Notes: generated by a model not told the origin, from the letters alone. 50,147 bases of DNA from an uncultured Clostridia bacterium (GCA_937889655.1 CALBZG010000119.1:1-50147), one strand, 5' to 3'. Numbered from the stretch's first letter, positions 710 through 48,627 are shown. Made by a program: numbers and translations.

Positions 710-776
710 GAAAAGTAAAATCTGTCTTATAAACATATCGCATCGTCGTTTGACGATGCTAAAAGGAGCCGTTAAC

Positions 777-2012: not shown

Positions 2013-2084
2013 CGGATATTAGTCGACGATGAATACAATAGAAGTATGCAACAACGGATTACGTAGAGAAGAAAGGATAAAAGA

Positions 2085-2723: not shown

Positions 2724-2741
2724 ACAAACGAGGTAGATGAA

Positions 2742-3638: not shown

Positions 3639-3703
3639 CGTTAAATAGCACTCACGAATTGGCGAAGCAACAAATATCGCTCAGAGTTTAGAAGGGTGTA
3701 AAA

Positions 3704-5810: not shown

Positions 5811-5813
5811 GAC

Positions 5814-15785: not shown

Positions 15786-15817
15786 ATGGCCGCCCTTGAA
15801 AAGGGGCGGCCATTTTG
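15786..15817 (+). terminator. Intrinsic terminator
   Basis: ATGGCCGCCC-loop-GGGCGGCCAT followed by TTTT. Confidence 0.7.
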
Positions 15818-15896
15818 CTATACTGATGTTTACTTAACGGGATGGATATTTTTTATTCAACACCTGAATTTTACCGAAATTATGCGGAGGCTTTGC

Positions 15897-18259: not shown

Positions 18260-18260
18260 C

Positions 18261-24065: not shown

Positions 24066-24995
24066 TCAGCCACAACGAGCCAACAGCTTTTCCCATTTTG
24101 AGTCAATGTAATTCTGGGTTTCTTCGATCATGCATTCGGTTCCGGGCTCAAACATATGGCTGAATCTGCCCTGCCTGATAAGGAAGTCTTCTACAGGCAG
24201 CTTTTTCTTCGGGCTGTAATTAAGCTTCCAGATCCCTTCTTCGATTTCATAGAGAGGCCATACGCAGGTTTCCACAGCCAGCTTGCAGATGTCCGCAATA
24301 TCTTCCGTTTCATAGCGCCATCCTCGGGGACAAGGGGACAGAATGTTCAAAAAGGCAGGTCCCTTTGTATAAATAGCCTTACGGGATTTTTCGTGAAGAT
24401 CCTTAAAATTACTCAGAAAAGTGGTCTGAGCCGCATAAGGGATGTCATGGGCGGCAACGATGGCCGTCAGATCCTTTTTGTTTTGGAATTTACCCGGGAC
24501 CACAGAGCCTACCGGGGTTGTGGTGGCATCTGCGAAACGCGGAGTCGAGGATGACCTCTGTATACCGGTGTTCATATAGGCTTCATTGTCGTAGCAGACA
24601 TAAACCATGTCATGCCCGCGCTCCAGGGCCCCGGACAATGATTGTATGCCGATATCGTATGTACCTCCGTCGCCTCCAAAAGCAATGAACTTATAGTTTT
24701 CCTCGATTTTTCCGCGCTTTTTCAATACTCTGTAAGCGGCTTCGACACCGCCTGCTGTGGCGCCGGCATTTTCAAATGCGCTGTGGATGTAGCTGTCCGT
24801 ATAGGCAGTATAAGGATATAAAAAAGTGGATACCTCAAGACAGCTGGTGGCATTGACGACCACCGCTTTATCTTCCGGATCAAGGGCTCTTAAGACTCCG
24901 CGAACAGCGATAGCGGCGCCGCAGCCTGCGCATAAACGATGGCCGCCCACAAGGCGCTCTGGTTTTGCTGCTTCATTTTTCAGATTGTAGGCCAT
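24066..24995 (-). CDS. Pyruvate / 2-ketoisovalerate-type 2-oxoacid:ferredoxin oxidoreductase, beta (TPP) subunit
   Basis: N-terminal CAGCG motif and GGDGGTYDIG TPP motif. Last gene of a gamma-delta-alpha-beta operon. Confidence 0.85.
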   Translation of the reverse strand: MAYNLKNEAAKPERLVGGHRLCAGCGAAIAVRGVLRALDPEDKAVVVNATSCLEVSTFLYPYTAYTDSYIHSAFENAGATAGGVEAAYRVLKKRGKIEENYKFIAFGGDGGTYDIGIQSLSGALERGHDMVYVCYDNEAYMNTGIQRSSSTPRFADATTTPVGSVVPGKFQNKKDLTAIVAAHDIPYAAQTTFLSNFKDLHEKSRKAIYTKGPAFLNILSPCPRGWRYETEDIADICKLAVETCVWPLYEIEEGIWKLNYSPKKKLPVEDFLIRQGRFSHMFEPGTECMIEETQNYIDSKWEKLLARCG

Positions 24996-26191
24996 TATTT
25001 AAGCACCCCCTCTTCCCTTTGTCCTAAATGTCTATAGATCTTTCCCGTTTGCCCAGTCTTAACGATACTTTCCAGTTCTCTAAAGATAAATTTAAAGTCC
25101 TCTACCCGGATATCCCGACCGCCCAGGCCGTAGACATAATTGATGGATTTAGGACGAACATCCAGATCGTATAAGGCCGAACGGGTCTCAGCGAAAAGAG
25201 GGCCTCCGCAGGCGGAGAATCCTTCACACTTGTCCATAACGGCGATAGCTTTAACGTGGGCTAACGCCTCGGCCAGCTCCTCCATTGGGAAAGGCCTGAA
25301 CACCCGTATCTTGATCAAACCAACTTTATTGCCGGAGCTGCGCAACTCCCTGATAGCCTCTTTGGCGGTGCCGGCGCTGGAGCCGATGACCACGATGGCG
25401 GTCTCAGCATCTTCCATCATGTATTCTTCAAAAAAGCCATAGCTTCTGCCAGTCAGTTTTTCAAAATCTTTCGCGACGGACAGGATGACGCTTTTTGCGT
25501 TTTTCATAGCCTCGGCTTGAAGGATCTTGTGATCCATATAGTAGGCGGATATGTCGTAGGGACCTACGGCAAGAGGGTTTTCTTTTTTCAGCAGATAGTG
25601 CTCAGGCTCGTAATGGCCAACAAAACGCTTCACATCATCGTCTTCCAACAGTTCTATATTTTCCACAGCATGGCTGGTGATAAAGCCGTCCTGACAAACC
25701 ATCACCGGCAGTCTGACCGACTTGTTTTCTCCGATGGGCATGGCCATTATAAAGTTATCGTAAGCTTCCTGATTCGACTCGGAATAAAGCTGGATCCAGC
25801 CGCTGTCCCGGGCTCCCATAGAATCGGAATGATCGTTATTGATGTTGATCGGACCCGTCAAAGCCCGGTTTACAAGTGCCATGGTAACAGGCAGTCTGGC
25901 GGAAGCAGTTACATATAGCATTTCCCACATAAAAGCCATTCCGGCGGAGGAAGTCGCTGTAACCGCTCTGGCACCTGCCGCCTGAGCAGCAAAACAGGTG
26001 GACATGGCGCTGTGTTCTGATTCTACCGCTACAAATTCCGTATCGACTTCTCCGTTGGCTACATAACCCGAAAAATATTGTGGGATCTCTGTGGAGGGTG
26101 TTATGGGAAATGCCCCCATAACATCGGGATTGATTTGCTTCATAGCAATGGCTACAGCTTCGTTGCCTGATAGTCTTTCTTTGATACTCAT
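24995..26191 (-). CDS. 2-oxoacid:ferredoxin oxidoreductase, alpha subunit
   Basis: GNEAVAIAMKQINPDVMGAFPITPSTEI block and a PorA/VorA-like length of 398 aa. Confidence 0.85.
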   Translation of the reverse strand: MSIKERLSGNEAVAIAMKQINPDVMGAFPITPSTEIPQYFSGYVANGEVDTEFVAVESEHSAMSTCFAAQAAGARAVTATSSAGMAFMWEMLYVTASARLPVTMALVNRALTGPININNDHSDSMGARDSGWIQLYSESNQEAYDNFIMAMPIGENKSVRLPVMVCQDGFITSHAVENIELLEDDDVKRFVGHYEPEHYLLKKENPLAVGPYDISAYYMDHKILQAEAMKNAKSVILSVAKDFEKLTGRSYGFFEEYMMEDAETAIVVIGSSAGTAKEAIRELRSSGNKVGLIKIRVFRPFPMEELAEALAHVKAIAVMDKCEGFSACGGPLFAETRSALYDLDVRPKSINYVYGLGGRDIRVEDFKFIFRELESIVKTGQTGKIYRHLGQREEGVLK

Positions 26192-26195
26192 AGGA

Positions 26196-26510
26196 TCAAG
26201 CTTCCTCCTTTACGAAGGTTATGGCATTGACAGGGCAGATCTTAAAACAGATACCGCAGCCTTTGCAATGCATCAGATCAAAATCAAGACGCCGACCGCC
26301 AACGACGGGGATCGAGCTGTCCGGGCAAAACGGATAGCACAACATGCAGTGAGTGCACTTTTCCTCATGAAAAATCGGCCTCATCGTTCTCCAGGAGCCG
26401 GTGTCAACAAGGATGGAGGTTCCACCCTCGTAGATTTCTCCGCCAGGTGTTAGTTTTTGCCATGGAGTCGTTTCGTTAATATCTTTTGCTCTTGTTGTCA
26501 TCCTGCACAA
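26196..26510 (-). CDS. 2-oxoacid:ferredoxin oxidoreductase, delta (2x[4Fe-4S]) subunit
   Basis: CTHCMLCYPFCP and CKGCGICFKICP motifs. 104 aa. Confidence 0.8.
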   Translation of the reverse strand: MCRMTTRAKDINETTPWQKLTPGGEIYEGGTSILVDTGSWRTMRPIFHEEKCTHCMLCYPFCPDSSIPVVGGRRLDFDLMHCKGCGICFKICPVNAITFVKEEA

Positions 26511-27127
26511 ACCTCCTCCAGGGATTTATAGATTGCTTTCATATTGCCTTCCACTACATGGGGTTTCGATGCAAATTTATGTCTGAAGGAACTTTCCATA
26601 TCCGCAAGAAATTTTTCTCTTTCAATCACATTGCTCACTTTTACCGTAGCAGCCAGCATTGGGGTATTCGGAAAATTCTTCCCCAGGGTTTCTTCTGAGA
26701 TCCTTCTGGCATCGATAGAGTATATCTTCCCTTTGTAGCCTTTCAGCAGTGGCCGAAGCTCGTGAGGTTTTTTATCGCTGTTGATGATGACGGCACCGGT
26801 TTCTTTTAAACCTTGGGTCACATCCACGGTCGAAAGCAGCGTTTCGTCGACAACCACGACATAGTCAGGGTTATATATATTTGAGTGTACGGAACATTTG
26901 CTTTCGCTTATGCGATTATATGCCGTGATGGGTGCGCCCATTCTTTCTGGGCCGTATTCAGGAAAGCCCTGTACTTGCTTTCCCGAACTGAACGCTACAT
27001 CCGCCAGCAGCAGACATGCCGTCTTAGCGCCTTGACCACCGCGGCCATGCCATCTTATTTCAATGACGTCTTTCTCCTGATTTTCCTTAAGATTGTCATT
27101 TGGCTGATTTTCAATTTCTTTCATCAT
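26498..27127 (-). CDS. 2-oxoacid:ferredoxin oxidoreductase, gamma subunit
   Basis: IRWHGRGGQGAKT...YGPERMGAP block. GGAG RBS. First gene after the T-box leader. Confidence 0.8.
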   Translation of the reverse strand: MMKEIENQPNDNLKENQEKDVIEIRWHGRGGQGAKTACLLLADVAFSSGKQVQGFPEYGPERMGAPITAYNRISESKCSVHSNIYNPDYVVVVDETLLSTVDVTQGLKETGAVIINSDKKPHELRPLLKGYKGKIYSIDARRISEETLGKNFPNTPMLAATVKVSNVIEREKFLADMESSFRHKFASKPHVVEGNMKAIYKSLEEVCAG

Positions 27128-33080: not shown

Positions 33081-33336
33081 TGTTGATCAAATTTTGATCA
33101 AAAGAGCCTAAAAACACAAAAAAAGTAAAAAAATTTTTAAAGATGCAAAAGAACAGTAACATTATATCATTGTTTAATCGACTATAATCTTATTAGCAGC
33201 AAATTAGTCATACTGAAAGAAAATTGCCTTAAATCTCTGTTGTGAACTATAAAAAACATTAATCCTTGAACGCGTTTTGAGCGTAAAAAAGGATAATGTT
33301 ATAAAAGTTCGAATATTACGCGTTTTTATGAACCAG

Positions 33337-33365
33337 TTTACAATTGGAATTGCAGGGTACATAAT
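33337..33365 (+). promoter_or_regulatory. Promoter-like element, copy 0 of a thrice-repeated TTTACA-N17-CATAAT module
   Basis: TTTACA (33337-33342), 17-nt spacer, CATAAT (33360-33365). The same hexamers and spacing occur at 33794 and 35772. Confidence 0.45.
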
Positions 33366-33400
33366 ACACATAGTGATTAGCTGATAGTTGCAGATCACCT

Positions 33401-33480
33401 AATAATTGCTTACTCTCCACTTATAAATATTTCTAAACGATAAAACCCGATGTAGTCTCAGCTGCATCGGGTTTTATTTT
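33401..33480 (+). repeat. Copy A of an ~80-nt conserved element ending in a terminator hairpin
   Basis: AATAATTGCTTACTCTCCACTTATAAATATTTC...ATAAAACCCGATG-TAGTCTCAGCTG-CATCGGGTTTTAT-TTT. Nearly identical to copy C (37875-37954). Confidence 0.65.
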
Positions 33481-33793
33481 ATCAACAAATAAAAAGTAAC
33501 TATCTTGCGATAAAGCGATGATATATGCGCTAAACATTCTCGCAGGGCAAACACCTGACATGCTAATAGATCATAGCGCTGAACCTTAATGCATATTAGC
33601 TTTTAGAGTTGTGCGTTCTTTATGACAAGTTCAAACAACCGCCGCAACGGCAAAAGGTTAAGGCATTATAAACCGTAAATAAAAATGACAATGCTCTGCC
33701 GAACCTTGTTGGCAGACACGAGTTAAAAGCCAATTTATAACATTATACGATAATATTATAAATAATTGAATATTATGTATTAATGTGAATTCA

Positions 33794-33822
33794 TTTACAA
33801 TAATATTTCGGGAGTACATAAT
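33794..33822 (+). promoter_or_regulatory. Promoter of APC permease 1 (copy 1 of the TTTACA-N17-CATAAT module)
   Basis: TTTACA (33794-33799), 17-nt spacer, CATAAT (33817-33822). Lies 70 nt upstream of the ATG. Confidence 0.5.
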
Positions 33823-33892
33823 GGTCTTGACAATGTGCGTAATGCGGCAATCATTTGCATTAAGCTGTAGAAAAGAAAGAGGAGGAGCGTAA

Positions 33893-35350: not shown

Positions 35351-35354
35351 CTGG

Positions 35355-35422
35355 CTTGCTCAACACTGATAAATATTTCTGAACGGTAGAGCCTGGCGCG
35401 GTCGCAGCTGCACCGGGCTCTA
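35355..35422 (+). repeat. Copy B (diverged) of the conserved 3' element
   Basis: CTTGCTCAACACTGATAAATATTTCTGAACGG-TAGAGCCTGG...CAGCTG...CCGGGCTCTA. The hairpin is kept by compensatory changes. No T-run follows. Confidence 0.5.
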
Positions 35423-35736
35423 GTGCACGACAATCTGGAATGTAACAAATTTGCGGTAATAGGATATTATCTTCGTAAAATCTTAACCTATCTCAAATTT
35501 AGAACCCATTAAAAGTTTAATTAATAGAAAAATTCTGATTTTATTTTTACCAACTAAAACCTTGTTTTAAATAAGTAATTTAAAAAAAGTTTTTTTCAAG
35601 GCCAAGTTTCAATTAATATTACAATATCAACTAATACGTTCAGTAATTCATGCAATTCAATCAAGTTCATTTTAAAAGAACATTGATACAGGTATAGAGT
35701 TGTGGTCAAAAAAACAGCAGAAACATCTCTAACCCA

Positions 35737-35762
35737 CAATGTACAGAAAATTCTGTACATTG
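35737..35762. promoter_or_regulatory. Perfect 12-2-12 palindrome upstream of a promoter, candidate operator
   Basis: CAATGTACAGAA-AA-TTCTGTACATTG. It ends 9 nt upstream of the -35 box at 35772. It contains AATGTACAGAAAATT, a 13/15 match to the CodY box AATTTTCWGAAAATT. Confidence 0.5.
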
Positions 35763-35771
35763 GCAAAAGAG

Positions 35772-35800
35772 TTTACAATATTAGGAAAATGGATCATAAT
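35772..35800 (+). promoter_or_regulatory. Promoter (copy 2 of the TTTACA-N17-CATAAT module)
   Basis: TTTACA (35772-35777), 17-nt spacer, CATAAT (35795-35800). Confidence 0.5.
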
Positions 35801-35914
35801 TCAAGTAATTATGAGTTATTAATAGGTACACAAATCATAAAATCAGCAAAATAGTAACAGATGGATTTGATGAACTGAAATAATAAGGGTTGGAAAAGAT
35901 AGGAGAAATAGAAC

Positions 35915-36244
35915 ATGTCAGACTATACAGAATATTACCTCATGTTGCCGGTACTGCTTTGGATTTTAACTTATATCATGATAGCTATCGCAGATCGGGC
36001 GGTTAAGAAAAAATTCGGGAGCAAAAGCGAAGAATATGTCGATCTGCGATTTCCTAAGTTTGTGGCATTGTTCCTCGATTCGGCGGCAACGGTGGGATTG
36101 GTTGTATTTGTTAAGTTTGGCACAGTGACTCCTGAAATTTCAACCTATTTTGTTGTTCCATATTTTGGGGTCACCGCATTCTTCCTGACATCAGTCTTTC
36201 GGGTATTTAAAGACGCAAGGAGAGCGAACGGGAGCAAATGGTAA
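35915..36244 (+). CDS. Small hypothetical membrane protein (3 predicted TM helices)
   Basis: 109-aa ORF with an AGGAG RBS and hydrophobic segments. I recognise no family. Confidence 0.45.
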   Translation: MSDYTEYYLMLPVLLWILTYIMIAIADRAVKKKFGSKSEEYVDLRFPKFVALFLDSAATVGLVVFVKFGTVTPEISTYFVVPYFGVTAFFLTSVFRVFKDARRANGSKW

Positions 36245-36424
36245 GCATATAACCATGCTTGTCTATAACCTTCTTTTGAAAGGAGTGATGTGTATTAAAA
36301 ATTAATAAATAATACTAAGTCAGATCCAAAAGGGAGTCGTTTGGGGTATTGGGGATACAGTTACAACTGGAATTTTTTTAATCTTATTTACTTATCTTAA
36401 AAAGCAAGAAAAGGAGGATTAAAT

Positions 36425-38099: not shown

Positions 38100-38174
38100 G
38101 GGCGATTAACTCAGCGGGAGAGTGCTACCGTCACAAGGTAGAAGTCGTTGGTTCGAACCCAATATCGCCCACCA
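38100..38174 (+). tRNA. tRNA-Val, anticodon CAC
   Basis: Manual cloverleaf: acceptor GGGCGAU/AUCGCCC, D arm ACUC-AGCGGGA-GAGU, anticodon arm CUACC-GUCACAA-GGUAG, variable loop AAGUC, T arm GUUGG-UUCGAAC-CCAAU, discriminator A, encoded CCA. Confidence 0.85.
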
Positions 38175-38185: not shown

Positions 38186-39343
38186 ATGAAAACAATTTCC
38201 ACCGGACAGCAGAATACAAGATCAGGGAACCGATATGGACGATCAGAGTGGGCAGGTGCCTTTGGGGACCTCGGAACTCTGATTCCTTTTATTGTTGGGT
38301 ATATCAGCATAGTAAGAATGGATCCCCGTGGAGTTCTTTTTATGCTGGGTATACTGCTGATTGGATCAGGGCTTTACTATAAGACACCGATCCCGGTACA
38401 GCCAATGAAAGCCATCGGTGCAGCCGCCATAGCTTCATCCGGGGCAATCACGCCGGGAATGATATGGGGAGCAGGTCTGTTTACGGGTGTCTTCTGGCTC
38501 TCTTTGGGATTGTCCGGCCAGTTGGTTAAAGTATCGAAAATTGCATCCAAGCCTGTTCTAAGAGGAATCGTTCTGGGATTGGGACTCTTGTTTATGATGG
38601 ACGGGTTAAATATGATGAGGAAAGATTTCCTCGTCGCAGGCATCGCTCTTTTACTGACATTTGCGCTTCTTAAGAATAAAAAAGTACCTGCAATGTTTGT
38701 CTTGCTTATATTCGGTATGACTGCCGCAGTCCTCCGTAACCCTGCTTTTTTAGCGGAAATTTCAAAAATAAATCTGGATATTCAAATGCCTGAAGTAGCG
38801 CTAGGAAAGATTACTGTTCAGGAAATAATAAAAGGCATTTTACTTCTTGGGATTCCGCAGATCCCTTTGACTTTCGGAAATGCTGTCGTCGCAATCACTT
38901 CCGAAAACAACCGGTTGTTCCCTGCGCATCCGGTAAATGAAAACAAAATCGCGATATCCCAGGGGATTATGAATCTGATTTCACCACTTTTTGGCGGGAT
39001 CCCGGTTTGTCACGGCGCCGGCGGTATGGCAGGCCATGTTCGATTTGGTGCAAGAACCGGAGGAGCTCTTGTTATTTTAGGAGGGATACTCCTTGCAACA
39101 GGAATTTTCTTTGGCAGTTCTGTACTGTTGATTTTTGAAATATTTCCGCAAAGCGTGCTTGGTGTAATTTTATTTTTTGCAGGGCTGGAGCTTGCGGCCC
39201 CGGTCTGGAATGCCGGCATGGAAAGAAAAGATCAATATCTGCTGCTTGTTACGGCGGTTTTCTCGTTGTGGAATATCGGAATCGGATTCGCTGTCGGATT
39301 GATCCTGCAGGAACTATTTAATAGAAAATGGATCGATATCTGA
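38186..39343 (+). CDS. Putative sulfate/molybdate transporter (MOT / SulP-related family membrane protein)
   Basis: The N-terminal SEWAGAFGDLGTLIPF block resembles the MOT family. About 10 hydrophobic segments. The ATG lies only 11 nt after the tRNA CCA end. Confidence 0.6.
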   Translation: MKTISTGQQNTRSGNRYGRSEWAGAFGDLGTLIPFIVGYISIVRMDPRGVLFMLGILLIGSGLYYKTPIPVQPMKAIGAAAIASSGAITPGMIWGAGLFTGVFWLSLGLSGQLVKVSKIASKPVLRGIVLGLGLLFMMDGLNMMRKDFLVAGIALLLTFALLKNKKVPAMFVLLIFGMTAAVLRNPAFLAEISKINLDIQMPEVALGKITVQEIIKGILLLGIPQIPLTFGNAVVAITSENNRLFPAHPVNENKIAISQGIMNLISPLFGGIPVCHGAGGMAGHVRFGARTGGALVILGGILLATGIFFGSSVLLIFEIFPQSVLGVILFFAGLELAAPVWNAGMERKDQYLLLVTAVFSLWNIGIGFAVGLILQELFNRKWIDI

Positions 39344-39431: not shown

Positions 39432-39506
39432 GGGCGATTAACTCAGCGGGAGAGTGCTACCTCGACAAGGTAGAAGTCGTTGGTTCAAATCCAATATCGC
39501 CTACCA
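39432..39506 (+). tRNA. tRNA-Val, anticodon GAC (non-canonical C33)
   Basis: Same cloverleaf as the first copy. Differences: anticodon loop UCGACAA, T loop UUCAAAU, and a G1-U72 wobble (acceptor 3' strand AUCGCCU). Encoded CCA. Confidence 0.8.
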
Positions 39507-39582: not shown

Positions 39583-40812
39583 TCAAGGAGCATTGCAGTA
39601 CTTGCCCATAAACAAGATGCTTCCGGTAGCTTCTTCTTCGATCAGGAAAAGGAATGGCCGATCGGCAATGAAAGTGACAGGCTCCTGCGCAGCGGTCTCG
39701 GCAACGATCACAACAGTGACCCCGGCAGCTTCGCTGCCTTCTTCATTGACTTCTATAACTGCCTTGTGTAAAACTTCGCTTATGAATAATCCCTCGCGGA
39801 TCCCCGACAGGTCCGCTTCTGCCGAAAAAGGCAGCTCCATGCCCATCGCGATAAGCGAGTCGTTCAATTTTTTGATCCCGTACTCCATTTTGAACTTCGG
39901 TACTTGAAGCAGAACATCTTCGGTGTTCTTTAAAGTATCTTTAACACTATTAAACTTATCGGAATCCATGGTCCGAATAAAGGAATCGATATCCTGACCG
40001 GCTTCCGGAAGGATAAAATACATGGCAGTTTTACCTTCCCCGTAAGGCAGCCTGACCGCTTTGTAATCATAGCCTTCTCCATATTCCACTTCGCCTTTCA
40101 TACTCATCATATCGATTGTTTGGAAACCGTCGATGCCATTAAAATCCGTCTGAAAAGTATCCTCTATATTGAACTGAGCCGCCCATTCGCCTTTGAAGTA
40201 AACCGCATTGATCAAGTACATAACGACTTGATCCGGGATAGGCGGATCGATCATTTTATCTATTTTCCCTTTCGTTGACTCTTTGATCCATTTATTAATG
40301 GCGTTGACAGTTTCCGGATCAGAAAAATCAGCCTCTTTGACCTCTGCATCAAAAACGTTTTGATTTGTGGAAATGAATTCTTCTTTGATCGCTTCGCCCT
40401 GCCGGTACCAGATAGAATTGCATATGTTCAGTTCCACTTTCTTGTCGGTTTGCGATAGATAAGGCAATAGGTTGCTATAAGTTTCATTTACTTCATGGAT
40501 TATGAGGCCTTCATATCGCAGCCCCTTTTCCATTTGCGCCAGTGTGTCTCCTAAAGCGCCGTTATAGGTCATGGTAAGTGCCGTGGAAATGCTCAAAGGC
40601 GATATAAATATATTCTCAGCCTTTTCCTCCCTGTTGATTTCTCTGAATATGTCAAAGGCGAAATCAACGTTTCGACCAGTCACCTCGTTATTGATTTTAT
40701 TTAGATCATAACTCTTGTCATTCTCAGTGTTTTGACTGCATCCCGCGGTAACAGCCACCATCATGATTAGGCCCAATAACAAAACAACGGGTTTTTTTAT
40801 ATTGATTTTCAT
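39583..40812 (-). CDS. Serpin-family protease inhibitor, lipoprotein
   Basis: Lipobox signal peptide (VTAGC). Serpin hinge and reactive-centre loop EEGSEAAGVTVVIVAETAAQEP. C-terminal signature FIADRPFLFLIEE...ILFMGK. Confidence 0.85.
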   Translation of the reverse strand: MKINIKKPVVLLLGLIMMVAVTAGCSQNTENDKSYDLNKINNEVTGRNVDFAFDIFREINREEKAENIFISPLSISTALTMTYNGALGDTLAQMEKGLRYEGLIIHEVNETYSNLLPYLSQTDKKVELNICNSIWYRQGEAIKEEFISTNQNVFDAEVKEADFSDPETVNAINKWIKESTKGKIDKMIDPPIPDQVVMYLINAVYFKGEWAAQFNIEDTFQTDFNGIDGFQTIDMMSMKGEVEYGEGYDYKAVRLPYGEGKTAMYFILPEAGQDIDSFIRTMDSDKFNSVKDTLKNTEDVLLQVPKFKMEYGIKKLNDSLIAMGMELPFSAEADLSGIREGLFISEVLHKAVIEVNEEGSEAAGVTVVIVAETAAQEPVTFIADRPFLFLIEEEATGSILFMGKYCNAP

Positions 40813-40922: not shown

Positions 40923-40951
40923 TTGACAAATCCATTATACTATACTACAAT
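40923..40951 (+). promoter_or_regulatory. Sigma-A promoter of the six-gene Ehr/Hyf-like operon
   Basis: TTGACA (40923-40928), 17-nt spacer, TACAAT (40946-40951). Confidence 0.6.
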
Positions 40952-40993
40952 GAAAAAGCTTGCGGCTATTTGCAGCAGGAAAGTTCGGAGGGG

Positions 40994-43048
40994 ATGGACA
41001 TCGGAATGGAAGTTTTTCAAACCGTGGTGCTATTAAAATCATCATTTGCGTTATTGGGCATTGCCGCAGTTATAGCTCTTATTGCTTCCGGCAAGCAAAA
41101 ATTCTGCAATCTATCAGTTAACATGATATGCATCGTGTCATCCATTTTAATGATGGCAGCTTCCGGATTCATCATATTGTCAGAAAACCAATTTGTTAAA
41201 ATTCATATTTTTGATACCGCTATTCCTTTTCTGTCTTTAGAGCTGGCTGTTGATGGGCTTTCCGCCCTTTTCCTTCTGATCTTGTCTATTCTGGTATTTT
41301 GCATATCGGTGTATTCCATCGGCTACATATCCCATTACTTCGGGAAGCGAAATGTAGGCCTTTTTTATTTCCTTTATTCAACCTTCATCTTATCGATGGC
41401 TTTGGTATTTACATCATCAAATGCAGTATTTTTCTATATTTCGTGGGAAGCCATGTCTGTGCTCTCTTATTTTCTGGTGATTTTCGAATCGGAGATCGAG
41501 AAAAATCAGAAAGCCGGAATTTTATATATTGTCATGACCCATATCGGAACAGCCTTTTTGCTTATAGGGTTTATGATCTCATACAGCTTTACCGGATCTT
41601 TTGATATCACCGGCAGCTCTCAGGCGATACCTGAAGGGGCTAAAAATATTATTTTCATTCTGTATTTGCTTGGTTTTTGTACGAAGGCCGGTGCGATACC
41701 GGTACACATTTGGCTTCCATATGCCCATCCGGCGGCCCCAAGTAACGTATCGGCGCTTATGTCGGGAGTCATGATCAAAACGGCCATTTATGGCCTTGTC
41801 CGTTTTGTCATGGAATTTCTTGGAGTGCAGCATACATGGTGGGGCGTGCTGATTATTGTTATTGGGGTTTTGTCAGCTTTCCTTGGAGTAGCCTATGCTC
41901 TGATGGAGCACGACATGAAGAGGTTGCTGGCTTATCATAGTGTAGAGAATATCGGCATCATTTTAATCGGTCTGGGGATCAGTTTTATCTCCTTTAATGG
42001 GGGGAACACCATTATCGGGTCGATGGCATTGACGGCTTCTCTGCTCCACACCTTGAACCATGCGCTTTTTAAAGGCGGATTATTTTTGGGCGCCGGCTCC
42101 ATCCATTATGCGACGCATACAAAAGATATTGAAAAATTAGGAGGCCTGATCCGAACGATGCCTGTTACGGCACTATTCGTGCTTTGCTTTTCTCTGGCCA
42201 TTTCGGCAATCATTCCCTTCAATGGTTTTGTAAGCGAGTGGCTTACATTTTTATCGATATTCACTTATGTTGCACCTGGGCAGGCAGGCATCAACATCAT
42301 ACTGATTATAGCTGTTGCCACCCTCGGCATGGCCGGAGCATTGGCCGCTGCATGCTTTGTGAAGTTTTATGGCATCTCTTTTCTCGGACTTCCCAGAACT
42401 AATCAGGCCGCAGAAGCCAGAGAAGTTTCTGCTCCAATGAATATCGCCATGGGCATCATAGGGGGTATTTGCCTTCTAATAGGACTATTACCGATGCAGG
42501 CAATCAGAACGATCGACAAAGTTACTTTCAGCTTGACTGGCGCATCCTCCGTAACCCAGTTGGGCCAAGGGTTTATCGATCCTTGGATCTCACTGGATAA
42601 TACCGGTAGCTCGATATCTCCTGCAGAAATTTTTGCTGCTCTCGCAGTCGTGTCGCTGTTGACGCTCATAGCCGTCAGGATCATCGGAGGAAAGTATCTT
42701 GAACGGAGATATGGCTCCTGGGATTGTGGATTTGAAGCATTGAATCCCAGAATGCAATATACAGCCACCGGGTTTTCAAAGCCAATAAAAATCGTTTTTA
42801 GGATATTATTCAGACCTTCAAGAAAAACGGAGCTCAAGGGTGGATCAAGATACCAGCCTGATGAAATCGAATACACTACAACCTCTGAATCCATTTTTGA
42901 GAAATATGCATACAGGCCGGCTTTTCAGCAAATAATAACCTTTTCAAGAAGAGCCAAGTTTTTTGTTCAAACGGGTAAAATACATAACTATTTGATATAT
43001 ATTTTTATCGCCGTATTAGCTTTGATGGCCTACAACAGATTTGTTTAG
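40994..43048 (+). CDS. NuoL/HyfB-like antiporter-type membrane subunit
   Basis: Large polytopic protein with the ND5/HyfB block WLPYAHPAAPSNVSALMSGVMIKTAIYG. The start is ATG 40994 or 41006, after a GGAGGGG RBS. The track's N-terminal extension is unlikely to be real. Confidence 0.8.
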   Translation: MDIGMEVFQTVVLLKSSFALLGIAAVIALIASGKQKFCNLSVNMICIVSSILMMAASGFIILSENQFVKIHIFDTAIPFLSLELAVDGLSALFLLILSILVFCISVYSIGYISHYFGKRNVGLFYFLYSTFILSMALVFTSSNAVFFYISWEAMSVLSYFLVIFESEIEKNQKAGILYIVMTHIGTAFLLIGFMISYSFTGSFDITGSSQAIPEGAKNIIFILYLLGFCTKAGAIPVHIWLPYAHPAAPSNVSALMSGVMIKTAIYGLVRFVMEFLGVQHTWWGVLIIVIGVLSAFLGVAYALMEHDMKRLLAYHSVENIGIILIGLGISFISFNGGNTIIGSMALTASLLHTLNHALFKGGLFLGAGSIHYATHTKDIEKLGGLIRTMPVTALFVLCFSLAISAIIPFNGFVSEWLTFLSIFTYVAPGQAGINIILIIAVATLGMAGALAAACFVKFYGISFLGLPRTNQAAEAREVSAPMNIAMGIIGGICLLIGLLPMQAIRTIDKVTFSLTGASSVTQLGQGFIDPWISLDNTGSSISPAEIFAALAVVSLLTLIAVRIIGGKYLERRYGSWDCGFEALNPRMQYTATGFSKPIKIVFRILFRPSRKTELKGGSRYQPDEIEYTTTSESIFEKYAYRPAFQQIITFSRRAKFFVQTGKIHNYLIYIFIAVLALMAYNRFV

Positions 43049-43066
43049 GAGGCATTTGGAGGGTAA

Positions 43067-44026
43067 ATGAACTATTTGATATATATGGTATTGCAAATAA
43101 CAGTGATCATCGTCTTCGCTCCACTGATCAGCGGTGTGATAAGAAAGATCAAGGCGCTTTCCCAAAAACGAAAAGGCGCGCCTGTTTTTCAGATGTATTA
43201 TGATCTTCATAAACTGTTTAGAAAGACATCCGTCGTTTCGGAAACTTCGTCGTGGATTTTTAAAGCTGCACCTTACGTTTTTTTTTCAACAGCTGTTACA
43301 GCAGCTTTACTGGTGCCTGTATCGACGTTGATCCCCCAACCTTCGAGTCTGCCGGGAGATTTTATCGTTATGGTTTCCGTATTAGCATTGGGAAGATTTT
43401 TTATGATGCTGGCCGGGCTTGACACCGGAAGCACTTTCGGCGGCATGGGAAGCAGCAGAGAGGCTTTGATATCCTCTCTGATAGAACCGTCGATTCTGGT
43501 CTCTCTCTTTACAATAGCACTTATTACCGGGTCCACCTCCCTCTCAAGGATCCTATTCGTCGTAAACAGCAGTGAAAACCAGCTGCCGCTTCAGGTATCC
43601 ATATTGATATTCCTTGCTTTGCTGGTAATCATCATTGCAGAAACAGCCCGGATACCGGTAGACGATCCTTCCACCCATTTGGAGCTTACCATGGTTCATG
43701 AAGCTATGATCCTTGAATACTCCGGAAGACATCTTGCATTGATGGAATATGGCGCAGCCGTCAAACAGTTGACATTGATCACGCTGCTGGTCAATATTTT
43801 ACTTCCTTTCGACGGAATGATTTCACAAACCGGCATGATGGCCATCCTGCTGTCCTTGCTATTTTATGCAGCAAAGGTGCTCATGGCAGCGGTCCTGATT
43901 GCATTGATCGAGATAAATTGTGTAAAGCTTAAGCTTTTCAGCATACCTAATCTTGCCGCACTGGCCTTTATCCTTTCCTTTGTGGCATTTTTACAATTTT
44001 TTGTTCTGGGAGGCAACCATGTCTGA
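43067..44026 (+). CDS. NuoH/HyfC/HycD-like membrane subunit
   Basis: 319 aa and polytopic. The block ETARIPVDDPSTHLELTMVHEAMILEYSG is typical of HycD/HyfC. Confidence 0.8.
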   Translation: MNYLIYMVLQITVIIVFAPLISGVIRKIKALSQKRKGAPVFQMYYDLHKLFRKTSVVSETSSWIFKAAPYVFFSTAVTAALLVPVSTLIPQPSSLPGDFIVMVSVLALGRFFMMLAGLDTGSTFGGMGSSREALISSLIEPSILVSLFTIALITGSTSLSRILFVVNSSENQLPLQVSILIFLALLVIIIAETARIPVDDPSTHLELTMVHEAMILEYSGRHLALMEYGAAVKQLTLITLLVNILLPFDGMISQTGMMAILLSLLFYAAKVLMAAVLIALIEINCVKLKLFSIPNLAALAFILSFVAFLQFFVLGGNHV

Positions 44027-44678
44027 TTTATTTGATACGCTTTCAGTGCTGATCCTGATGACTGCCTTTGTTTTGATGGCAAATAAAAAAGTCAAGGCCT
44101 ATATTAAAACCTTTCGCGTACAATCTGCACTGATCGCTCTCTCAGCCGGTATTCTGGGTGTCGAAGCCATTATGGATGAAGGACGTTATGATCTCATGGT
44201 GGTCTGCGTACTGATCGTAGTTCTAAAAGTGATCTATATTCCCGGCTTACTGCATAAAACTTATGCCGGTATCGAATACAGAACAGAAAAAGATTTCATA
44301 CTCAACATTCCAATATTGGTATTAATAAGCTGCAGTCTTGTAGTATTCACATATTTTTCGTTTTCAGCAAGCGGCTTCGGCGTCAACGGTAGCGTCATCG
44401 ATCTTCAACTTGTGAATACGATATCGGTCACAATGATCGGACTTCTTTTTATGATCACCAGGAAAAAAGCCATAGGTCAGATCATAGGATTTCTGGAGGT
44501 TGAAAACGGGATATTCATAACAGCGATGTTTTCCACCCAGGGGATGCCTTTTATCGTCGACATGGGGATCTTCATCGATATGCTGACGGCTGTGATGATC
44601 ATGGGTGTGCTGGTCTTTAAAATCAACGTTACATTTGAATCGATCAATACCGACAGGTTGAACAAACTGAAAGGATAA
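44019..44678 (+). CDS. HyfE-like membrane subunit (NuoK-related C-terminus)
   Basis: The start ATG 44019 (GGGAGG RBS) overlaps the upstream stop by 8 nt. The block QIIGFLEVENGIFITAM is typical of HyfE. Confidence 0.75.
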   Translation: MSDLFDTLSVLILMTAFVLMANKKVKAYIKTFRVQSALIALSAGILGVEAIMDEGRYDLMVVCVLIVVLKVIYIPGLLHKTYAGIEYRTEKDFILNIPILVLISCSLVVFTYFSFSASGFGVNGSVIDLQLVNTISVTMIGLLFMITRKKAIGQIIGFLEVENGIFITAMFSTQGMPFIVDMGIFIDMLTAVMIMGVLVFKINVTFESINTDRLNKLKG

Positions 44679-44689
44679 AAGGCCAGACA

Positions 44690-46162
44690 ATGAGTTTTCT
44701 GATTCTTGCAGTACCGGTAATCGCCGCGCTGCTGATGATAACCAACAGAATTATTAGGAGAATGCATATAATCAGCCTGGCAGCTTCCGGAACAATGCTG
44801 GTATCCGCAATTCCCATCACAAGCGATATTTTAGCTTTTGGGAAAATAGAATCTTCGTTCATGGGGGGATTCCTATATTTGGATGCGCTCAGCGTGATCG
44901 TATTGGATATCGTCGTGTTGATCGGTTTTTTGGCCTGCATATATTCTGTTGGATATCTGAAACGCGAAATCCTTCTGGGGGCATTTGACTTTAAGAGGGT
45001 CCGGCTTTATTATGTCCTAATGTTTTCCTTCATGTTTACAATGCTGCTGGCCCTTTCGGTCAAAAATGTCGGCATCATGTGGATCGCAATTGAAGCAACG
45101 ACTCTGGCCTCGGCATTTCTTGTGGGTTTCTATAACGACAGATATGCCCTTGAAGCCGCCTGGAAATATATCATGATCTGCTCTGTCGGCATTGCCTTGG
45201 CAATGCTGGGGATCATATTTCTGAACCTTTCAGCCATGGCCGCCTTGGACAGTTCAGCGCAGCTCGACTGGACAGCTCTGATGGATAACGCCGGCAGCCT
45301 GAAACCCTCATCCGTCAGGCTTGCCTTTATTTTCATCCTTGTGGGTTTCGGGACAAAGGCAGGACTGGCGCCTATGCATACATGGCTGCCGGATGCCCAT
45401 AGCCAGGCGCCTGCACCAATAAGTGCGCTGCTTTCCGGTGTGCTGCTTAATAGTGCAATGTATGGAATCATTCGAATCACTGCTGTGACCAATAAAAATA
45501 TGGGAAGCAGTGAATTCTCCGGCAACTTGCTGATTCTCCTTGGCATGCTTTCTATTCTGACCGCAAGCGTTTTCATTCTGACCCAAAAAGATTATAAAAG
45601 ACTGCTAGCCTATTCCAGTATCGAGCACATGGGGATCATTGCCGTTGCTATAGGTTTTTTTACACCGGCGTCTATATTCGGCGGGTTGTTTCATATGCTC
45701 AATCACTCGCTGACAAAATCCATGCTTTTTTTCTGCTCCGGCACCATCCTTCAGAAATACGGCACAAGGCAAATTACGAAAATCAAAGGCGCCATCAAGC
45801 TCCTTCCCTATACAGGTACAGCATTTTTGCTTGGATTGTTTGCCATTGCGGGAACGCCTCCGTTCAGCATTTTTGCAAGTGAATTCAGCATAATGTCAGC
45901 AATTTTCAAAGAGGGGGATTTCATCATCGGCTCTGTTCTTATCATGCTGCTGGCTTTTGTTTTCGCAGGCATCGCCATAGCTTTATTCAGGATTTTTTAC
46001 GGGACAAGCAGCATGGAAACACCACAGCCTGGCGAAATCAATATCCCGGGAACTATAGCCGCCTTGATCCTTCTGCTCATGATAAGTACCATGGGGCTGC
46101 TGATACCGGAACAATTGAAGGAATTGCTTCATAATGCGCAAAATATCATATACGGATCATAA
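44690..46162 (+). CDS. NuoM/N / HyfF-like antiporter-type membrane subunit
   Basis: 490 aa with the block GLAPMHTWLPDAHSQAPAPISALLSGVLLNSAMYG. Confidence 0.8.
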   Translation: MSFLILAVPVIAALLMITNRIIRRMHIISLAASGTMLVSAIPITSDILAFGKIESSFMGGFLYLDALSVIVLDIVVLIGFLACIYSVGYLKREILLGAFDFKRVRLYYVLMFSFMFTMLLALSVKNVGIMWIAIEATTLASAFLVGFYNDRYALEAAWKYIMICSVGIALAMLGIIFLNLSAMAALDSSAQLDWTALMDNAGSLKPSSVRLAFIFILVGFGTKAGLAPMHTWLPDAHSQAPAPISALLSGVLLNSAMYGIIRITAVTNKNMGSSEFSGNLLILLGMLSILTASVFILTQKDYKRLLAYSSIEHMGIIAVAIGFFTPASIFGGLFHMLNHSLTKSMLFFCSGTILQKYGTRQITKIKGAIKLLPYTGTAFLLGLFAIAGTPPFSIFASEFSIMSAIFKEGDFIIGSVLIMLLAFVFAGIAIALFRIFYGTSSMETPQPGEINIPGTIAALILLLMISTMGLLIPEQLKELLHNAQNIIYGS

Positions 46163-46195
46163 CCGGGGAAATCCCGTTGAAAGGAACGAAATATC

Positions 46196-47776
46196 GTGTT
46201 AACAAAATTTATGGCCGGGATACAGGGGGCCTTTGGTCCAAGTATCCTCAAAAGCAGCGTCTGCAATCGGAATGAACTATATATCGATGTGGAACCGGAA
46301 CGAGCGCCGATGATCTGCACATATCTTTGCAGCGAGCTCGGATATCCGCTGGTTTCCATGTTTGCCTGCGATGAGCGTGAATTGACGAACCGCTTTTTCG
46401 TTTACTATGTTTTTGCCGACAGAAAAAATACAAAGCTGGTCATTATCAGAGTAGCCGTTGATCCGGCCAAGATGGAGATAAGATCCCTCAGCGGAAAGGT
46501 TTACGCTGCGGCTCGCTATGAACGGGAAATAAAGGATCTTTTCGGAATTGTTCCCGTAGGGCATCATAATCCGAAAAGGCTTGTATTCCATAGCAACTGG
46601 CCGAAAGGGGCATACCCTCTAAGAAAGGATTACGAAATCAGCCACCGCCCTGATGTTGCAAGGGAGACGATCAAATTCCAAAAGGTCAGGGGCGAAGGAG
46701 TTTATGAAATACCTGTGGGGCCGGTCCATGCAGGAATCATCGAACCGGGACATTTTCGCTTCAGTGTGGCGGGAGAACCGATCATCAATTTGGAGGCCCA
46801 GCTCTATTACACCCACAAAGGGATCGAAAAGCTCTGTGAAGGGAAAAGCATCGAACAATGCCTCTATATCGCCGAAAGAATTTCCGGTGATGAGACGTTC
46901 GCTAATTCATTGGCTTATTGCCAGGCAGTTGAAAAAATCGGCGATATCAGGATTCCGGGCCGGGCGCAATATACGAGGGTCGTATTTGCCGAGCTGGAAA
47001 GACTGATTTGCCATCTTGGCGATTTGGGCGGCATTTGCCTTGATACCGGTTATGGCTTTGCCAACGGACAGTTCAGAATGCTGAGAGGATGGGCGTATAA
47101 TATCGCTGATGAGCTGTGCGGAATGAGATTCTTGCGCAGCGTGAACCGGATCGGCGGTGTCCGAAAGGACTTTATTGCCGGTAAGGAAGCCGTGGTGATC
47201 CAACTGTTGAAAAAGCTGCACACCGAATTGACGGACACTGTCGGGATCATAAAATCCAACAGTATGTTTATGGATAGAGTCGAAAATACTGGAATTCTAA
47301 AGACCAAGACTGCGGGGGACCTGAATGCTGTTGGCCCGGGCGGAAGAGCTTCGGGAATCGGACATGATGTACGGAAGGACTTTCCTTATGAAGCATATGG
47401 AGAACTCAAGCTTAAAATTCCGGTGTATTATTACGGAGACGTAAACTGCAGGATGAATGTCAAAATCGACGAATGCTTCCAGTCGTTAGAAATGATCATC
47501 TCTGCGCTGGAGTCCATGCCGGAAGGCAAGATAACGGGACAGGTCGGACTTCTAGAGCCATATCGCTTTTCCTTCGGCATGACGGAGGCGCCGCGGGGAG
47601 AGAACATCCATTTTGTCATGACGGGAGAAAACAACACACTACTCCGCTATAAAATCAGAACTCCTTCTTTCTGCAATTGGCCGGCTTTATGCGTTGCCGT
47701 GAAAGGGAATATCGTTCCGGATTTCCCGCTCATAAACAAGAGCTTCAATCTATCTTATGCAGGCAACGATTTATAA
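46196..47776 (+). CDS. HycE/HyfG-like (NuoC-NuoD fusion) large subunit lacking the [NiFe]-binding cysteines (EhrL-like)
   Basis: NuoC-like N-terminal domain followed by GPVHAGIIEPGHFRFSV...THKGIEK. The expected ER-x-C-G-x-C-x3-H site reads ERISGDETFAN (46874-46906). The expected C-terminal D-P-C-x2-C-x-D-R site reads NLSYAGNDL (47747-47773). Confidence 0.85.
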   Translation: MLTKFMAGIQGAFGPSILKSSVCNRNELYIDVEPERAPMICTYLCSELGYPLVSMFACDERELTNRFFVYYVFADRKNTKLVIIRVAVDPAKMEIRSLSGKVYAAARYEREIKDLFGIVPVGHHNPKRLVFHSNWPKGAYPLRKDYEISHRPDVARETIKFQKVRGEGVYEIPVGPVHAGIIEPGHFRFSVAGEPIINLEAQLYYTHKGIEKLCEGKSIEQCLYIAERISGDETFANSLAYCQAVEKIGDIRIPGRAQYTRVVFAELERLICHLGDLGGICLDTGYGFANGQFRMLRGWAYNIADELCGMRFLRSVNRIGGVRKDFIAGKEAVVIQLLKKLHTELTDTVGIIKSNSMFMDRVENTGILKTKTAGDLNAVGPGGRASGIGHDVRKDFPYEAYGELKLKIPVYYYGDVNCRMNVKIDECFQSLEMIISALESMPEGKITGQVGLLEPYRFSFGMTEAPRGENIHFVMTGENNTLLRYKIRTPSFCNWPALCVAVKGNIVPDFPLINKSFNLSYAGNDL

Positions 47777-47788
47777 AGGAAGAAAACC

Positions 47789-48571
47789 ATGTTAGATAAA
47801 ACCAAAAAAATATTAAAATATAAAATCCTTACGCAAGATTATCCGAAAGTGCAGCCGGACATGAGCCTTTGGGCTGGAAATCCCATGATCAATAGTTCTA
47901 AATGCAATGGGTGCGGCGAATGTGTCGGGAGATGCCCATCCGGTGCCATTATTTGGAATAAGGATTCCGAAGCGCCTTACATCGACTTTGACCGGTGTAT
48001 TTTCTGCTTGTTGTGTCATGAAGTTTGTCAGGCGGGAGCTGTTGATCTAATCAAGGAATTCCAGATGGCCCGGAAGGAAAAGCGAAATTTCAAATACGAG
48101 GCTGTTGGAGCTGGAGCCGATGACACAGAAGCTTCTTTAGATGCTTTGGGTATGGAACTGCAATCTAAAATTAAAAAATTGTATGGCAGAAGTTTGATGG
48201 TACGGGAAGTGGATGCGGGCTCCTGCAACGGCTGCGACTGTGAAATCAACGCTGTAACCAATCCTTTCAATGAAATCGAACGATTTGGGATCAGCTTTGT
48301 CGCTTCGCCCAGACACGCGGATATGCTCCTTGTGACCGGTATATGCACCAGGAATATGCAGGAAGCACTGCTCAAGACATACCAGGCAACTCCCGATCCT
48401 AAGCTTGTAGTAGCAGTGGGATCCTGTGCCTGCTCAGGCGGGATATTCAGGGATACCTACGCTTCCGGAAATGGCATCGACGGCATCGTACCGGTAGATG
48501 TCTACATACGCGGATGCCCTCCGAGGCCACAGACTATTATTTATGGAATTTTAAAAGCGCTGGATCGTTAG
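47789..48571 (+). CDS. Fusion of a 2x[4Fe-4S] ferredoxin domain to a NuoB/HycG-like small subunit (EhrS-like)
   Basis: N-terminal CNGCGECVGRCP and CIFCLLCHEVC motifs. The C-terminal NuoB-like module keeps its cluster cysteines (GSCNGCDCE, GSCACSGG, GCPPRP). Confidence 0.85.
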   Translation: MLDKTKKILKYKILTQDYPKVQPDMSLWAGNPMINSSKCNGCGECVGRCPSGAIIWNKDSEAPYIDFDRCIFCLLCHEVCQAGAVDLIKEFQMARKEKRNFKYEAVGAGADDTEASLDALGMELQSKIKKLYGRSLMVREVDAGSCNGCDCEINAVTNPFNEIERFGISFVASPRHADMLLVTGICTRNMQEALLKTYQATPDPKLVVAVGSCACSGGIFRDTYASGNGIDGIVPVDVYIRGCPPRPQTIIYGILKALDR

Positions 48572-48588
48572 CCTTACGATAAAGATAG

Positions 48589-48627
48589 GACCTGCTCCAT
48601 GGATTAAAACCGGAGCAGGTTTTTTTA
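48589..48627 (+). terminator. Intrinsic terminator closing the six-gene operon
   Basis: CCTGCTCC-loop-GGAGCAGG followed by a T7 run. Confidence 0.75.

Follow-up and report, generated by a model that had tools for sequence, protein, structure and literature searches.

An apparent descendant of the energy-converting hydrogenases without the nickel-iron site: an Ehr-type operon in a Clostridia bacterium

Introduction

What can a membrane complex do that is built like an energy-converting hydrogenase and has none of the ligands of the nickel-iron (NiFe) site? This question is raised by an operon of six genes located at positions 40923-48627 (+ strand) of a 50,147-nucleotide stretch of DNA from an uncultured Clostridia bacterium (GCA_937889655.1, CALBZG010000119.1:1-50147), the whole of which is hereinafter called the window. 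An earlier note on this DNA assigned the operon to the Ehr (Ech- or energy-converting-hydrogenase-related) class, which is represented in Geobacter sulfurreducens by the genes EhrA-1/B/C/D/L/S (GSU0739-45; Coppi 2005 and Marreiros 2013, as cited in PMC3569383, PMC6349859 and PMC7894505). The earlier note also stated that no substrate has been assigned to such complexes. This is still so: papers published in 2023 call the function of Ehr unknown (PMC10284858, PMC10432482), and our literature search found no later paper that assigns one.

The six-gene operon and its products

The operon is one transcription unit that consists of a promoter, six co-directional genes and a terminator, in agreement with its description in the earlier note as a self-contained set bracketed by transcription signals. 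The predicted promoter (40923-40951), a sigma-70-type TTGACA-N17-TACAAT site, is identified by its consensus match only (11 of 12 positions), and such a match is no proof of function; it lies 55 nt upstream of ATG 41006 and is one of only two TTGACA-17-TACAAT-like sites in the 10.6 kb scanned. The first gene (g1, EhrA; 41006-43048) encodes an antiporter-like subunit of the HyfB/HycC/NuoL type. Its translation could also start at ATG 40994, but ATG 41006 is the more likely start because the resulting product of 680 aa has the length of the orthologues in two syntenic loci, L001 and L082. There follow a HyfC/HycD/NuoH-type subunit that connects the membrane and hydrophilic arms (g2, EhrB; 43067-44026), a HyfE-like membrane subunit with a NuoK-like C-terminal part (g3, EhrC; 44019-44678), an antiporter-like subunit of the HyfF/NuoM-N type (g4, EhrD; 44690-46162), a NuoC-NuoD (HycE-type) large subunit with a GTG start and without NiFe ligands (g5, EhrL; 46196-47776), and a small subunit in which a HycF-like domain with two [4Fe-4S] clusters is fused to a HycG/NuoB-like domain (g6, EhrS; 47789-48571). 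All six genes are on the + strand; g2 and g3 overlap by 8 nt, the remaining intergenic gaps span 11-33 nt, and Shine-Dalgarno-like purine runs are located 5' of g2-g6.

The intrinsic terminator (48587-48627, + strand) combines a GC-rich stem of about 12 bp, a loop region of 13 nt and a U7 tail; its fold (dG -19.2 kcal/mol, z = -4.3) was not equalled in stability by any of 200 shuffled sequences. An automatic terminator scan missed this stem-loop because the loop exceeds 8 nt. The GC content of the operon (0.452) equals that of the window (0.455), and there is therefore no sign of recent transfer. A search for the Rex operator (TTGTKAAN4TTMACAA, <=3 mismatches) gave 13 matches against 10 expected, none of them in the Ehr promoter, and an Rfam scan of the whole window found two tRNAs only and no leader RNA of the operon.

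The searches of Pfam, NCBIfam and PDB sequences agree on the assignment of the products and bear out the gene order NuoL/NuoH/HyfE/NuoN/large/small given in the earlier note. EhrA matches PF00361 (3e-56), NF005086 (5e-194) and PDB chain 7z0s_C (5e-66), and EhrB matches PF00146 (1e-38) and 7z0s_D (9e-46). EhrC is matched over its full length by NF008556 (hydrogenase 4 membrane subunit, 3.6e-22) and also, weakly, by PF00420 (0.002), the only NuoK-like signal in the set; EhrD matches PF00361 (2e-54) and NF005044 (HyfF, 4e-140). EhrL comprises the Complex1_30kDa and Complex1_49kDa domains, with HycE as its top PDB match (7z0s_E, 2.3e-92) and weaker matches to MbhL (4e-47), NuoCD (~1e-40) and MbsL (7.6e-25). 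In EhrS, residues 5-103 resemble HycF (3.5e-12) and residues 124-258 resemble HycG (1.4e-40). Because nearly all matches to NCBIfam equivalogs fall below the curated cut-offs, the six products are relatives rather than members of the named families. Neither the six products nor the rest of the window gave a match to NuoA, NuoJ, NuoE, NuoF or NuoG. Unlike the Mrp antiporter, with its MrpA-G set, the operon has a hydrogenase-like hydrophilic arm; MrpB, C, E, F and G were not found, and the likeness is limited to MrpA/D-like modules.

Loss of the nickel-iron site

The absence of the four NiFe cysteines, which the earlier note had pointed out, is evident from the HMMER alignment of EhrL with Escherichia coli HycE: ligands C241, C244, C531 and C534 of HycE correspond to S230, E233, S520 and G523 of EhrL (the HycE numbering was checked against the His-tagged PDB chain and the paper on the formate hydrogenlyase (FHL) structure, PMC9474812). 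Neither NiFe motif, L1 RxCGxCxxxH or L2 [DE]xCxxCxx[HR], is matched by EhrL, which carries the motifs ERISGDE...N and NKSFNLSYAGNDL. These are near-invariant: the 120 best homologues, at 64-92% identity, from Desulfosporosinus, Acetobacterium, Desulfitibacter, Dehalobacterium and many metagenome-assembled genomes (MAGs) of Clostridia, all have ER[IV]SGDE[TS]..N and NKSFNLSY[AS][GS]NDL, and all lack the four cysteines. Against the 92%-identical orthologous operon L082, the ratio of nonsynonymous to synonymous substitution rates (dN/dS) ranges from 0.07 to 0.16 across the six genes (g1 0.097, g2 0.127, g3 0.074, g4 0.092, g5 0.072, g6 0.158), the large subunit having the lowest value of the operon. 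All six genes are under purifying selection.

The earlier note had named sequencing error or a pseudogene state as findings that would undermine its reading; the motif invariance and the dN/dS values rule out both as the source of the cysteine loss. Recoding to selenocysteine is ruled out as well: the g5 frame is continuous and has no in-frame TGA. Judged from these sequence comparisons, the pocket of EhrL is remodelled rather than decayed, and the complex is a descendant of the energy-converting hydrogenases that dispenses with the nickel-iron site.

Relationships to other Ehr complexes and to presumed group 4f relatives

By its layout and cysteine loss, the operon belongs to Ehr as the class is defined in the literature (PMC3569383, PMC7894505, PMC6349859), so that the label given in the earlier note holds; it is a well-preserved example of an already described class, not a new kind of system. 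The Geobacter complex, whose subunits have been named NuoL-like EhrA-1, HyfE-like EhrC, large EhrL and small EhrS (PMC7894505), shares the six subunit types and the large subunit without NiFe cysteines, a likeness judged from subunit descriptions only. Ehr clusters are common and have been noted repeatedly, and the window locus is one of very many. An exhaustive profile-free search (E <= 1e-3) produced 8412 clusters at 50% identity; some 125 full-length representatives came from the top 150 clusters, about 90 of them without the cysteines and 26 with all four. Species-representative genomes yielded at least 596 matches.

Comparisons of whole loci rest on 80 related loci that were kept. The NiFe cysteines are missing from 66 of these, 65 of which are readable at all four ligand positions, and present in the other 14. 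The Cys-less loci come from Bacillota (55-69% identity) and, at 37-49% identity, from Methanomassiliicoccales, Methanosarcinales, Thaumarchaeota, Nitrospirota, Rokubacteria, Chloroflexota, Acidobacteriota, Actinomycetota and bacteria of the candidate phyla radiation (CPR); their consensus is ER[IV]-S/A-G-D-[E/T/S/N/M] and NKS[FL]N[LQ]-S-Y-[AS]-G-[NT]-D-[LR]. Almost all 80 loci retain the A-B-C-D-L-S gene order, and several phyla show an S-A-B-C-D-L variant.

The Cys-containing relatives (Thermincola, Desulfotomaculum, Selenomonas and others, and Chloroflexota) carry ERICG[AV]C..H and NKSFELCY[AS]C.DR. Because published trees put Ehr beside group 4f (PMC10284858), these relatives probably represent that group (HydDB 'Ehf', putative). 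Their large subunits are 38-44% identical to that of the window, are encoded in the same ABCDLS order, contain an identical beta1-beta2 loop, P[VI]HAGIIEPGHFRF, and likewise have no C-terminal extension past the last motif; several also share the fused HycF-HycG small subunit. The difference lies in the pocket, where the presumed 4f proteins keep ERICG[AV]C...H and NKSFELCY[AS]C.DR, in contrast to ERISGDE...N and NKSFNLSYAGNDL of the window.

In a neighbour-joining tree, the Bacillota clade to which the window locus belongs is monophyletic (99 of 100 bootstrap replicates); this is the only grouping with support, and the branching among the clade, the presumed 4f relatives and the remaining Ehr has none. 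Cultured hosts of this clade are Desulfosporosinus acidiphilus and Acetobacterium fimetarium, and a Dehalobacterium MAG also carries it. The host of the window itself belongs, as judged by FtsH homologues, to an uncultured Bacillota lineage without a named relative above about 78% identity. Two features set the clade apart: unlike most other Ehr, it has the HycF-like 2x[4Fe-4S] domain fused to the small subunit, and it has the E233/N237 variant of the pocket. The two positions covary, with Glu at 233 accompanied by Asn at 237 in 26 of 28 sequences and Thr, Ser or Asn accompanied by His in about 89 of 97, a pattern that may stem in part from shared ancestry.

Several individual relatives deserve mention. 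One protein, P0122, which is 46% identical to EhrL and groups with the clade of the window, keeps the first cysteine (VERICGDET… and …SCAGNDV) and, by its motifs, may be a transitional form that bridges the pockets of hydrogenases and of Ehr. Two Nitrospirota loci (L051, L073) contain two complete Ehr clusters in tandem, and in Methanomassiliicoccus (L010) the Ehr cluster adjoins a second, more distant group-4-like cluster.

The iron-sulfur wire, the pocket and the membrane arm

The loss of the NiFe ligands is not accompanied by loss of the predicted electron path in the Bacillota clade. EhrS retains the eight cysteines of two [4Fe-4S] clusters in its HycF-like domain (39, 42, 45, 49, 70, 73, 76 and 80) and the four of the proximal cluster in its HycG/NuoB-like domain (146, 149, 213 and 243), that is, the combination of proximal [4Fe-4S] and 2x[4Fe-4S] ferredoxin-like part that characterizes group-4 (4a/4f) hydrogenases. 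Six of the seven loci of the clade retain all 12; in the seventh (L005) the small subunit is split, and only the NuoB-like half was aligned. Four of eight fused small subunits of the Cys-containing relatives also have all 12. A parallel is E. coli FHL (Hyd-3/Hyd-4, HycCDEFG/HyfBCEFGHI; 7Z0S), the best solved-structure match for g1, g2, g5 and g6, in which HycF and HycG form the F1-F2-G1 relay (PMC9474812). The Ehr complex resembles FHL in its relay from HycF through HycG to the pocket of the large subunit and in retaining the proton-donor Glu and the canopy Arg. It differs from FHL in that it has no NiFe ligands and no HycB/FdhF input module, in that HycF and HycG are fused, and in that Asn518 replaces canopy Asp529.

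The pocket residues can be read from the FHL structure, in which E193 of HycE is the proton donor and R478, D529 and S283 are canopy residues (PMC9474812). Their counterparts E183 and R467 in EhrL are invariant in Cys-less and Cys-containing relatives alike, and the residue that aligns with D529, N518 in EhrL, is Glu in the presumed 4f relatives. The position of S283 is occupied by C272 in the window and by Ser in most clade members. A pocket that is invariant, acidic and endowed with the proton-donor Glu and the canopy Arg could in principle hold another metal centre, with Asp, Glu or Ser ligands, that still makes or uses H2. These properties are the sole point in favour of such a cryptic hydrogenase, which we regard as extremely improbable: all four thiolate ligands are gone, and no case in which an O-ligated site in this fold activates H2 is known to us. 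Studies of CPR bacteria reached the same conclusion for the Ehr of that group (PMC7304191).

Homology to complex I raises another alternative, namely, that Ehr is a ferredoxin:menaquinone oxidoreductase that works as complex I, NDH-1 or Fpo do, but with no NADH module. The NuoB, C, D, H and L/M/N modules are homologous, the charged residues of the membrane arm are kept, and it is the NuoB/NuoD/NuoH/NuoL/NuoN homologues that form the quinone module in complex I; some hosts (Desulfosporosinus, Desulfitobacteriia) make menaquinone; and N237 of EhrL is the same Asn that complex-I 49-kDa subunits have at that position. Comparison with Aquifex NuoCD2 and the fly 49-kDa subunit shows, however, that the quinone-binding Tyr of complex I is replaced by G231 and the His of the beta1-beta2 loop by I182, so that the binding of a quinone in the manner of complex I appears unlikely on alignment grounds. 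The beta1-beta2 loop (PVHAGIIEPGHFRF) is instead the very one found in the Cys-containing hydrogenase relatives, and a NuoA/NuoJ homologue was not recognised among the six products. Moreover, close homologues are present in Acetobacterium, which is reported to be quinone-free in the four species tabulated (PMC8578096), and relatives are found also in CPR bacteria (PMC7304191). Altogether, a quinone reductase seems quite improbable. The same evidence bears on the view, taken from the earlier note, that such complexes are evolutionary intermediates on the way to complex I. EhrL is far nearer to HycE (2e-92) than to NuoCD (1e-40) and has no quinone Tyr/His, and the Bacillota clade accordingly looks like a hydrogenase derivative in these alignments and does not look like such an intermediate.

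The membrane arm is Hyf-like without HyfD, with two antiporter-like subunits and HyfE, and its charged residues are conserved. All 67 aligned EhrA homologues have K227 and E411, the Lys of transmembrane helix (TM) 7 and the Glu of TM12; H234 is found in 66, and E148, the TM5 Glu, in 64, with gaps in the other 3. In EhrB, E140 and E192 are found in all 71 aligned homologues, E217 in 70 and E132 in 64. In EhrD, E135 is found in all 76 aligned homologues and K223 and H230 in 75 each, and position 398 is Glu (62) or Lys (13).

A possible ferredoxin-oxidising ion pump

The reading that we favour, tentatively and at somewhat less than even confidence, is that the complex oxidises ferredoxin and pumps ions, with an acceptor that is neither H+ nor a canonically bound quinone. 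Under this scheme, 2-oxoacid:ferredoxin oxidoreductases and related enzymes encoded nearby would reduce ferredoxin, which would dock on the HycF-like domain of EhrS. The two [4Fe-4S] clusters of this domain would hand electrons on to the HycG/NuoB-like domain and its proximal [4Fe-4S] cluster, from which they would reach, at the end of the wire, the former NiFe pocket with its invariant residues S230, G231, D232, E233, N237, N518, S520, G523, N524 and D525, which E183, the proton-donor Glu of the beta1-beta2 region, and R467, the canopy Arg, would still serve. In the pocket, a small acceptor would undergo proton-coupled reduction. By conformational and electrostatic coupling, this event would act by way of the HyfC/NuoH-like subunit on the HyfE subunit and on both antiporter-like subunits, which would export H+ or Na+. 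Such a reaction may also run in reverse.

Several lines of evidence argue for this scheme: the 12-Cys wire is intact and its domains match HycF and HycG of the FHL relay; the pocket motifs are near-invariant, and E183 and R467 invariant, in the gene with the lowest dN/dS of the operon; and the charged residues of the membrane arm are kept over 67-76 homologues. Ferredoxin would be supplied by enzymes of the host, for which three gene sets of the window (2-6594, 15786-19490 and 24066-27127) point to an amino-acid- and lactate-fermenting, ferredoxin-generating metabolism. These include histidine utilisation (hut) genes for urocanase, an imidazolonepropionase-like protein and formiminotransferase-cyclodeaminase; two four-subunit 2-oxoacid:ferredoxin oxidoreductases, with small delta-ferredoxin open reading frames (ORFs) at 5814-6059 and 26196-26510 (- strand); and a lactate dehydrogenase-Etf (LDH-EtfBA) cluster of FAD-oxidase, EtfB and EtfA, the last with a ferredoxin domain. 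The ferredoxin-rich, amino-acid-fermenting Firmicute context described in the earlier note is well founded in these genes. An acceptor other than H+ at a NiFe site follows from the loss of the NiFe ligands, and a non-quinone acceptor is suggested by the replaced Tyr and His ligands and by the close homologues in Acetobacterium. Acetobacterium bakii is listed with Rnf, no quinones, no cytochromes and an 'Ech-like complex' (PMC8578096), which we infer to be the same cluster as the operon of the window.

There is a precedent for such a descendant in the membrane-bound sulfane reductase of Pyrococcus (MBS/MBX; 6U8Y), a group-4 derivative that has lost hydrogenase chemistry, oxidises ferredoxin, pumps ions and uses a non-proton acceptor. 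MBS differs in having 13 subunits and an Mrp module compared with six genes here, MbsL is a far weaker match to EhrL than HycE, and the window locus has no sulfur-metabolism context. The proposal of a ferredoxin-oxidising, ion-pumping module in the earlier note is reasonable; what is inferred is that ferredoxin is the donor, that ions are pumped and that there is an acceptor. A more specific proposition is that the invariant S-G-D-E ... N-x-S-Y-A-G-N-D pocket is a new catalytic or cation-binding site that terminates the three-cluster wire and is fed by the proton-donor Glu; we consider it possible but on balance doubtful.

Alternatively, the six-gene core could be a docking platform, that is, the membrane and coupling module for a separately encoded soluble redox enzyme, as in FHL; candidate partners are formate dehydrogenase (FDH), carbon monoxide dehydrogenase (CODH), an [FeFe] hydrogenase or a similar enzyme. 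The Ehr subunits of Geobacter peak in formate-grown cells (PMC7894505), complexes of FDH with Ehr have been suggested in Margulisbacteria and Saganbacteria (PMC6349859), and the syntenic loci L001 and L082 have [FeFe] hydrogenase genes about 5-9 kb downstream. In the window, however, FDH, CODH and HycB-type genes were not found: the earlier note had reported the absence of hyp, hycI, fdhF and hycB, and a scan of the 34 other ORFs of >=110 aa with Pfam and of intergenic ORFs of >=45 aa by eye found no hyp, hycI, fdhF or hycB-like gene either. No such partner gene is recurrent beside the 80 loci, and a partner that supplies electrons leaves the acceptor at the former NiFe pocket unexplained. We consider the docking platform unlikely.

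Several observations weigh against the ferredoxin-driven pump itself. The acceptor cannot be named. Clustering of neighbours at the 80 loci revealed no conserved neighbour gene, the best being sigma-54 response regulators (11 of 80), with ABC ATPases, ArsR, DUF362, UspA and alcohol dehydrogenase (ADH) among the other clusters, and no recurrent flanking gene points to a substrate. Rnf is also present in the organisms to which an 'Ech-like complex' is ascribed (PMC8578096), which leaves no obvious need for a second pump driven by ferredoxin. The AlphaFold2 model of EhrL, built from a 21-sequence alignment, has a mean pLDDT (predicted local distance difference test) of 62, with the pocket segments 228-233 and 486-526 below 50, and the geometry of the pocket is assumed by homology to HycE. 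Finally, outside the Bacillota clade, the ferredoxin-like domain is missing from most Ehr small subunits, and the proximal-cluster cysteines are replaced in CPR-type, Methanosarcinales-type and a few other lineages. Both the domain and the four proximal cysteines are lost in L020, L025, L031, L043 and L044 (CPR and others), in L052, L053, L063, L066 and L080 (Methanosarcinales-type) and in L056 and L062, with replacements such as D/T, C/E/P, G/D and D/N. To judge by these ligand losses, such complexes may hold no redox cofactor at all, and the ancestral or common function of Ehr may be independent of electron flow.

The latter observation favours a different role, in which Ehr is a cation/proton transporter of the Mrp/Hyf type whose hydrophilic arm performs no substrate turnover; the Fe-S clusters, where present, would report the redox state of ferredoxin or be structural, and would gate ion transport, for example, in pH or Na+ homeostasis. 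Lineages without any Fe-S ligands (the ten CPR-, Methanosarcinales-type and other loci L020 to L080 named above, that is, all but L056 and L062) keep the ABCDL(S) set, and there is no conserved partner or acceptor-related gene near the 80 loci. A lead, not a test, comes from Methylocystis, where a 'group 4f' cluster is upregulated at pH 5 (log2FC +4.2 to +4.5; preprint 10.1101/2025.08.29.672306); its motif 'AARVS' resembles the Cys-less AARVSGD… of P0224, and by this motif the cluster is probably Ehr rather than a hydrogenase. Speaking against such redox sensing, the 12 cysteines, the proton-donor Glu and the remodelled pocket are strongly constrained, which is more than a sensor would seem to require, and no gene of the operon is under tighter constraint than that of the large subunit. 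This role, the main alternative to the pump, is in our estimate rather unlikely.

Genomic neighbourhood

Upstream of the Ehr operon, a divergent gene (39583-40812, - strand) encodes a serpin of 409 aa with a lipoprotein-type signal peptide (…VTAGCSQ). It is preceded in the window by a MOT1-family (molybdate-transporter-like) gene (38186-39343) flanked by two tRNA-Val genes, with anticodons CAC (38100-38174) and GAC (39432-39506). Farther upstream, non-coding leaders of 0.8-1.1 kb (33081-33892 and 35351-36424) precede two paralogous amino-acid permease genes; Rfam identified no family at gathering score in either leader.

The block of amino-acid permease, MOT1, serpin, Ehr, YjeF_N and isochorismatase genes is syntenic in L001 and L082. 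In these loci, the region that corresponds to the DNA past the end of the window (L001 14600-21581, L082 13995-21581) encodes DUF362-Fer4, Rex and a LysR regulator; a PAS-containing sensory-type [FeFe] hydrogenase, accompanied by a SpoIIE phosphatase; and subunits of the NuoE/NuoF type that probably belong to a bifurcating [FeFe] hydrogenase. It follows from these [FeFe] hydrogenase genes that H2 is produced or consumed in the lineage by other routes.

Implications

Ehr is among the most widespread members of the complex I/group-4 hydrogenase superfamily without a known reaction, with hosts that include Bacillota, Nitrospira, ammonia-oxidising archaea, methanogens, Actinobacteria, CPR bacteria and others. 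Knowledge of its function would fill a gap in the energy metabolism of many anaerobes and inform how hydrogenase modules were repurposed in the evolution of respiratory complexes. The Bacillota clade is a good test case, with a full Fe-S wire, the proton-delivery residues, no quinone ligands and cultured hosts; the window locus by itself adds no testability beyond the cultured carriers. If the pocket were indeed a new site, the Ehr of Bacillota would be a respiratory enzyme dependent on ferredoxin that has so far gone unrecognised, has either a novel acceptor or a novel principle of redox-driven ion coupling, and works beside Rnf in anaerobes free of quinones and cytochromes.

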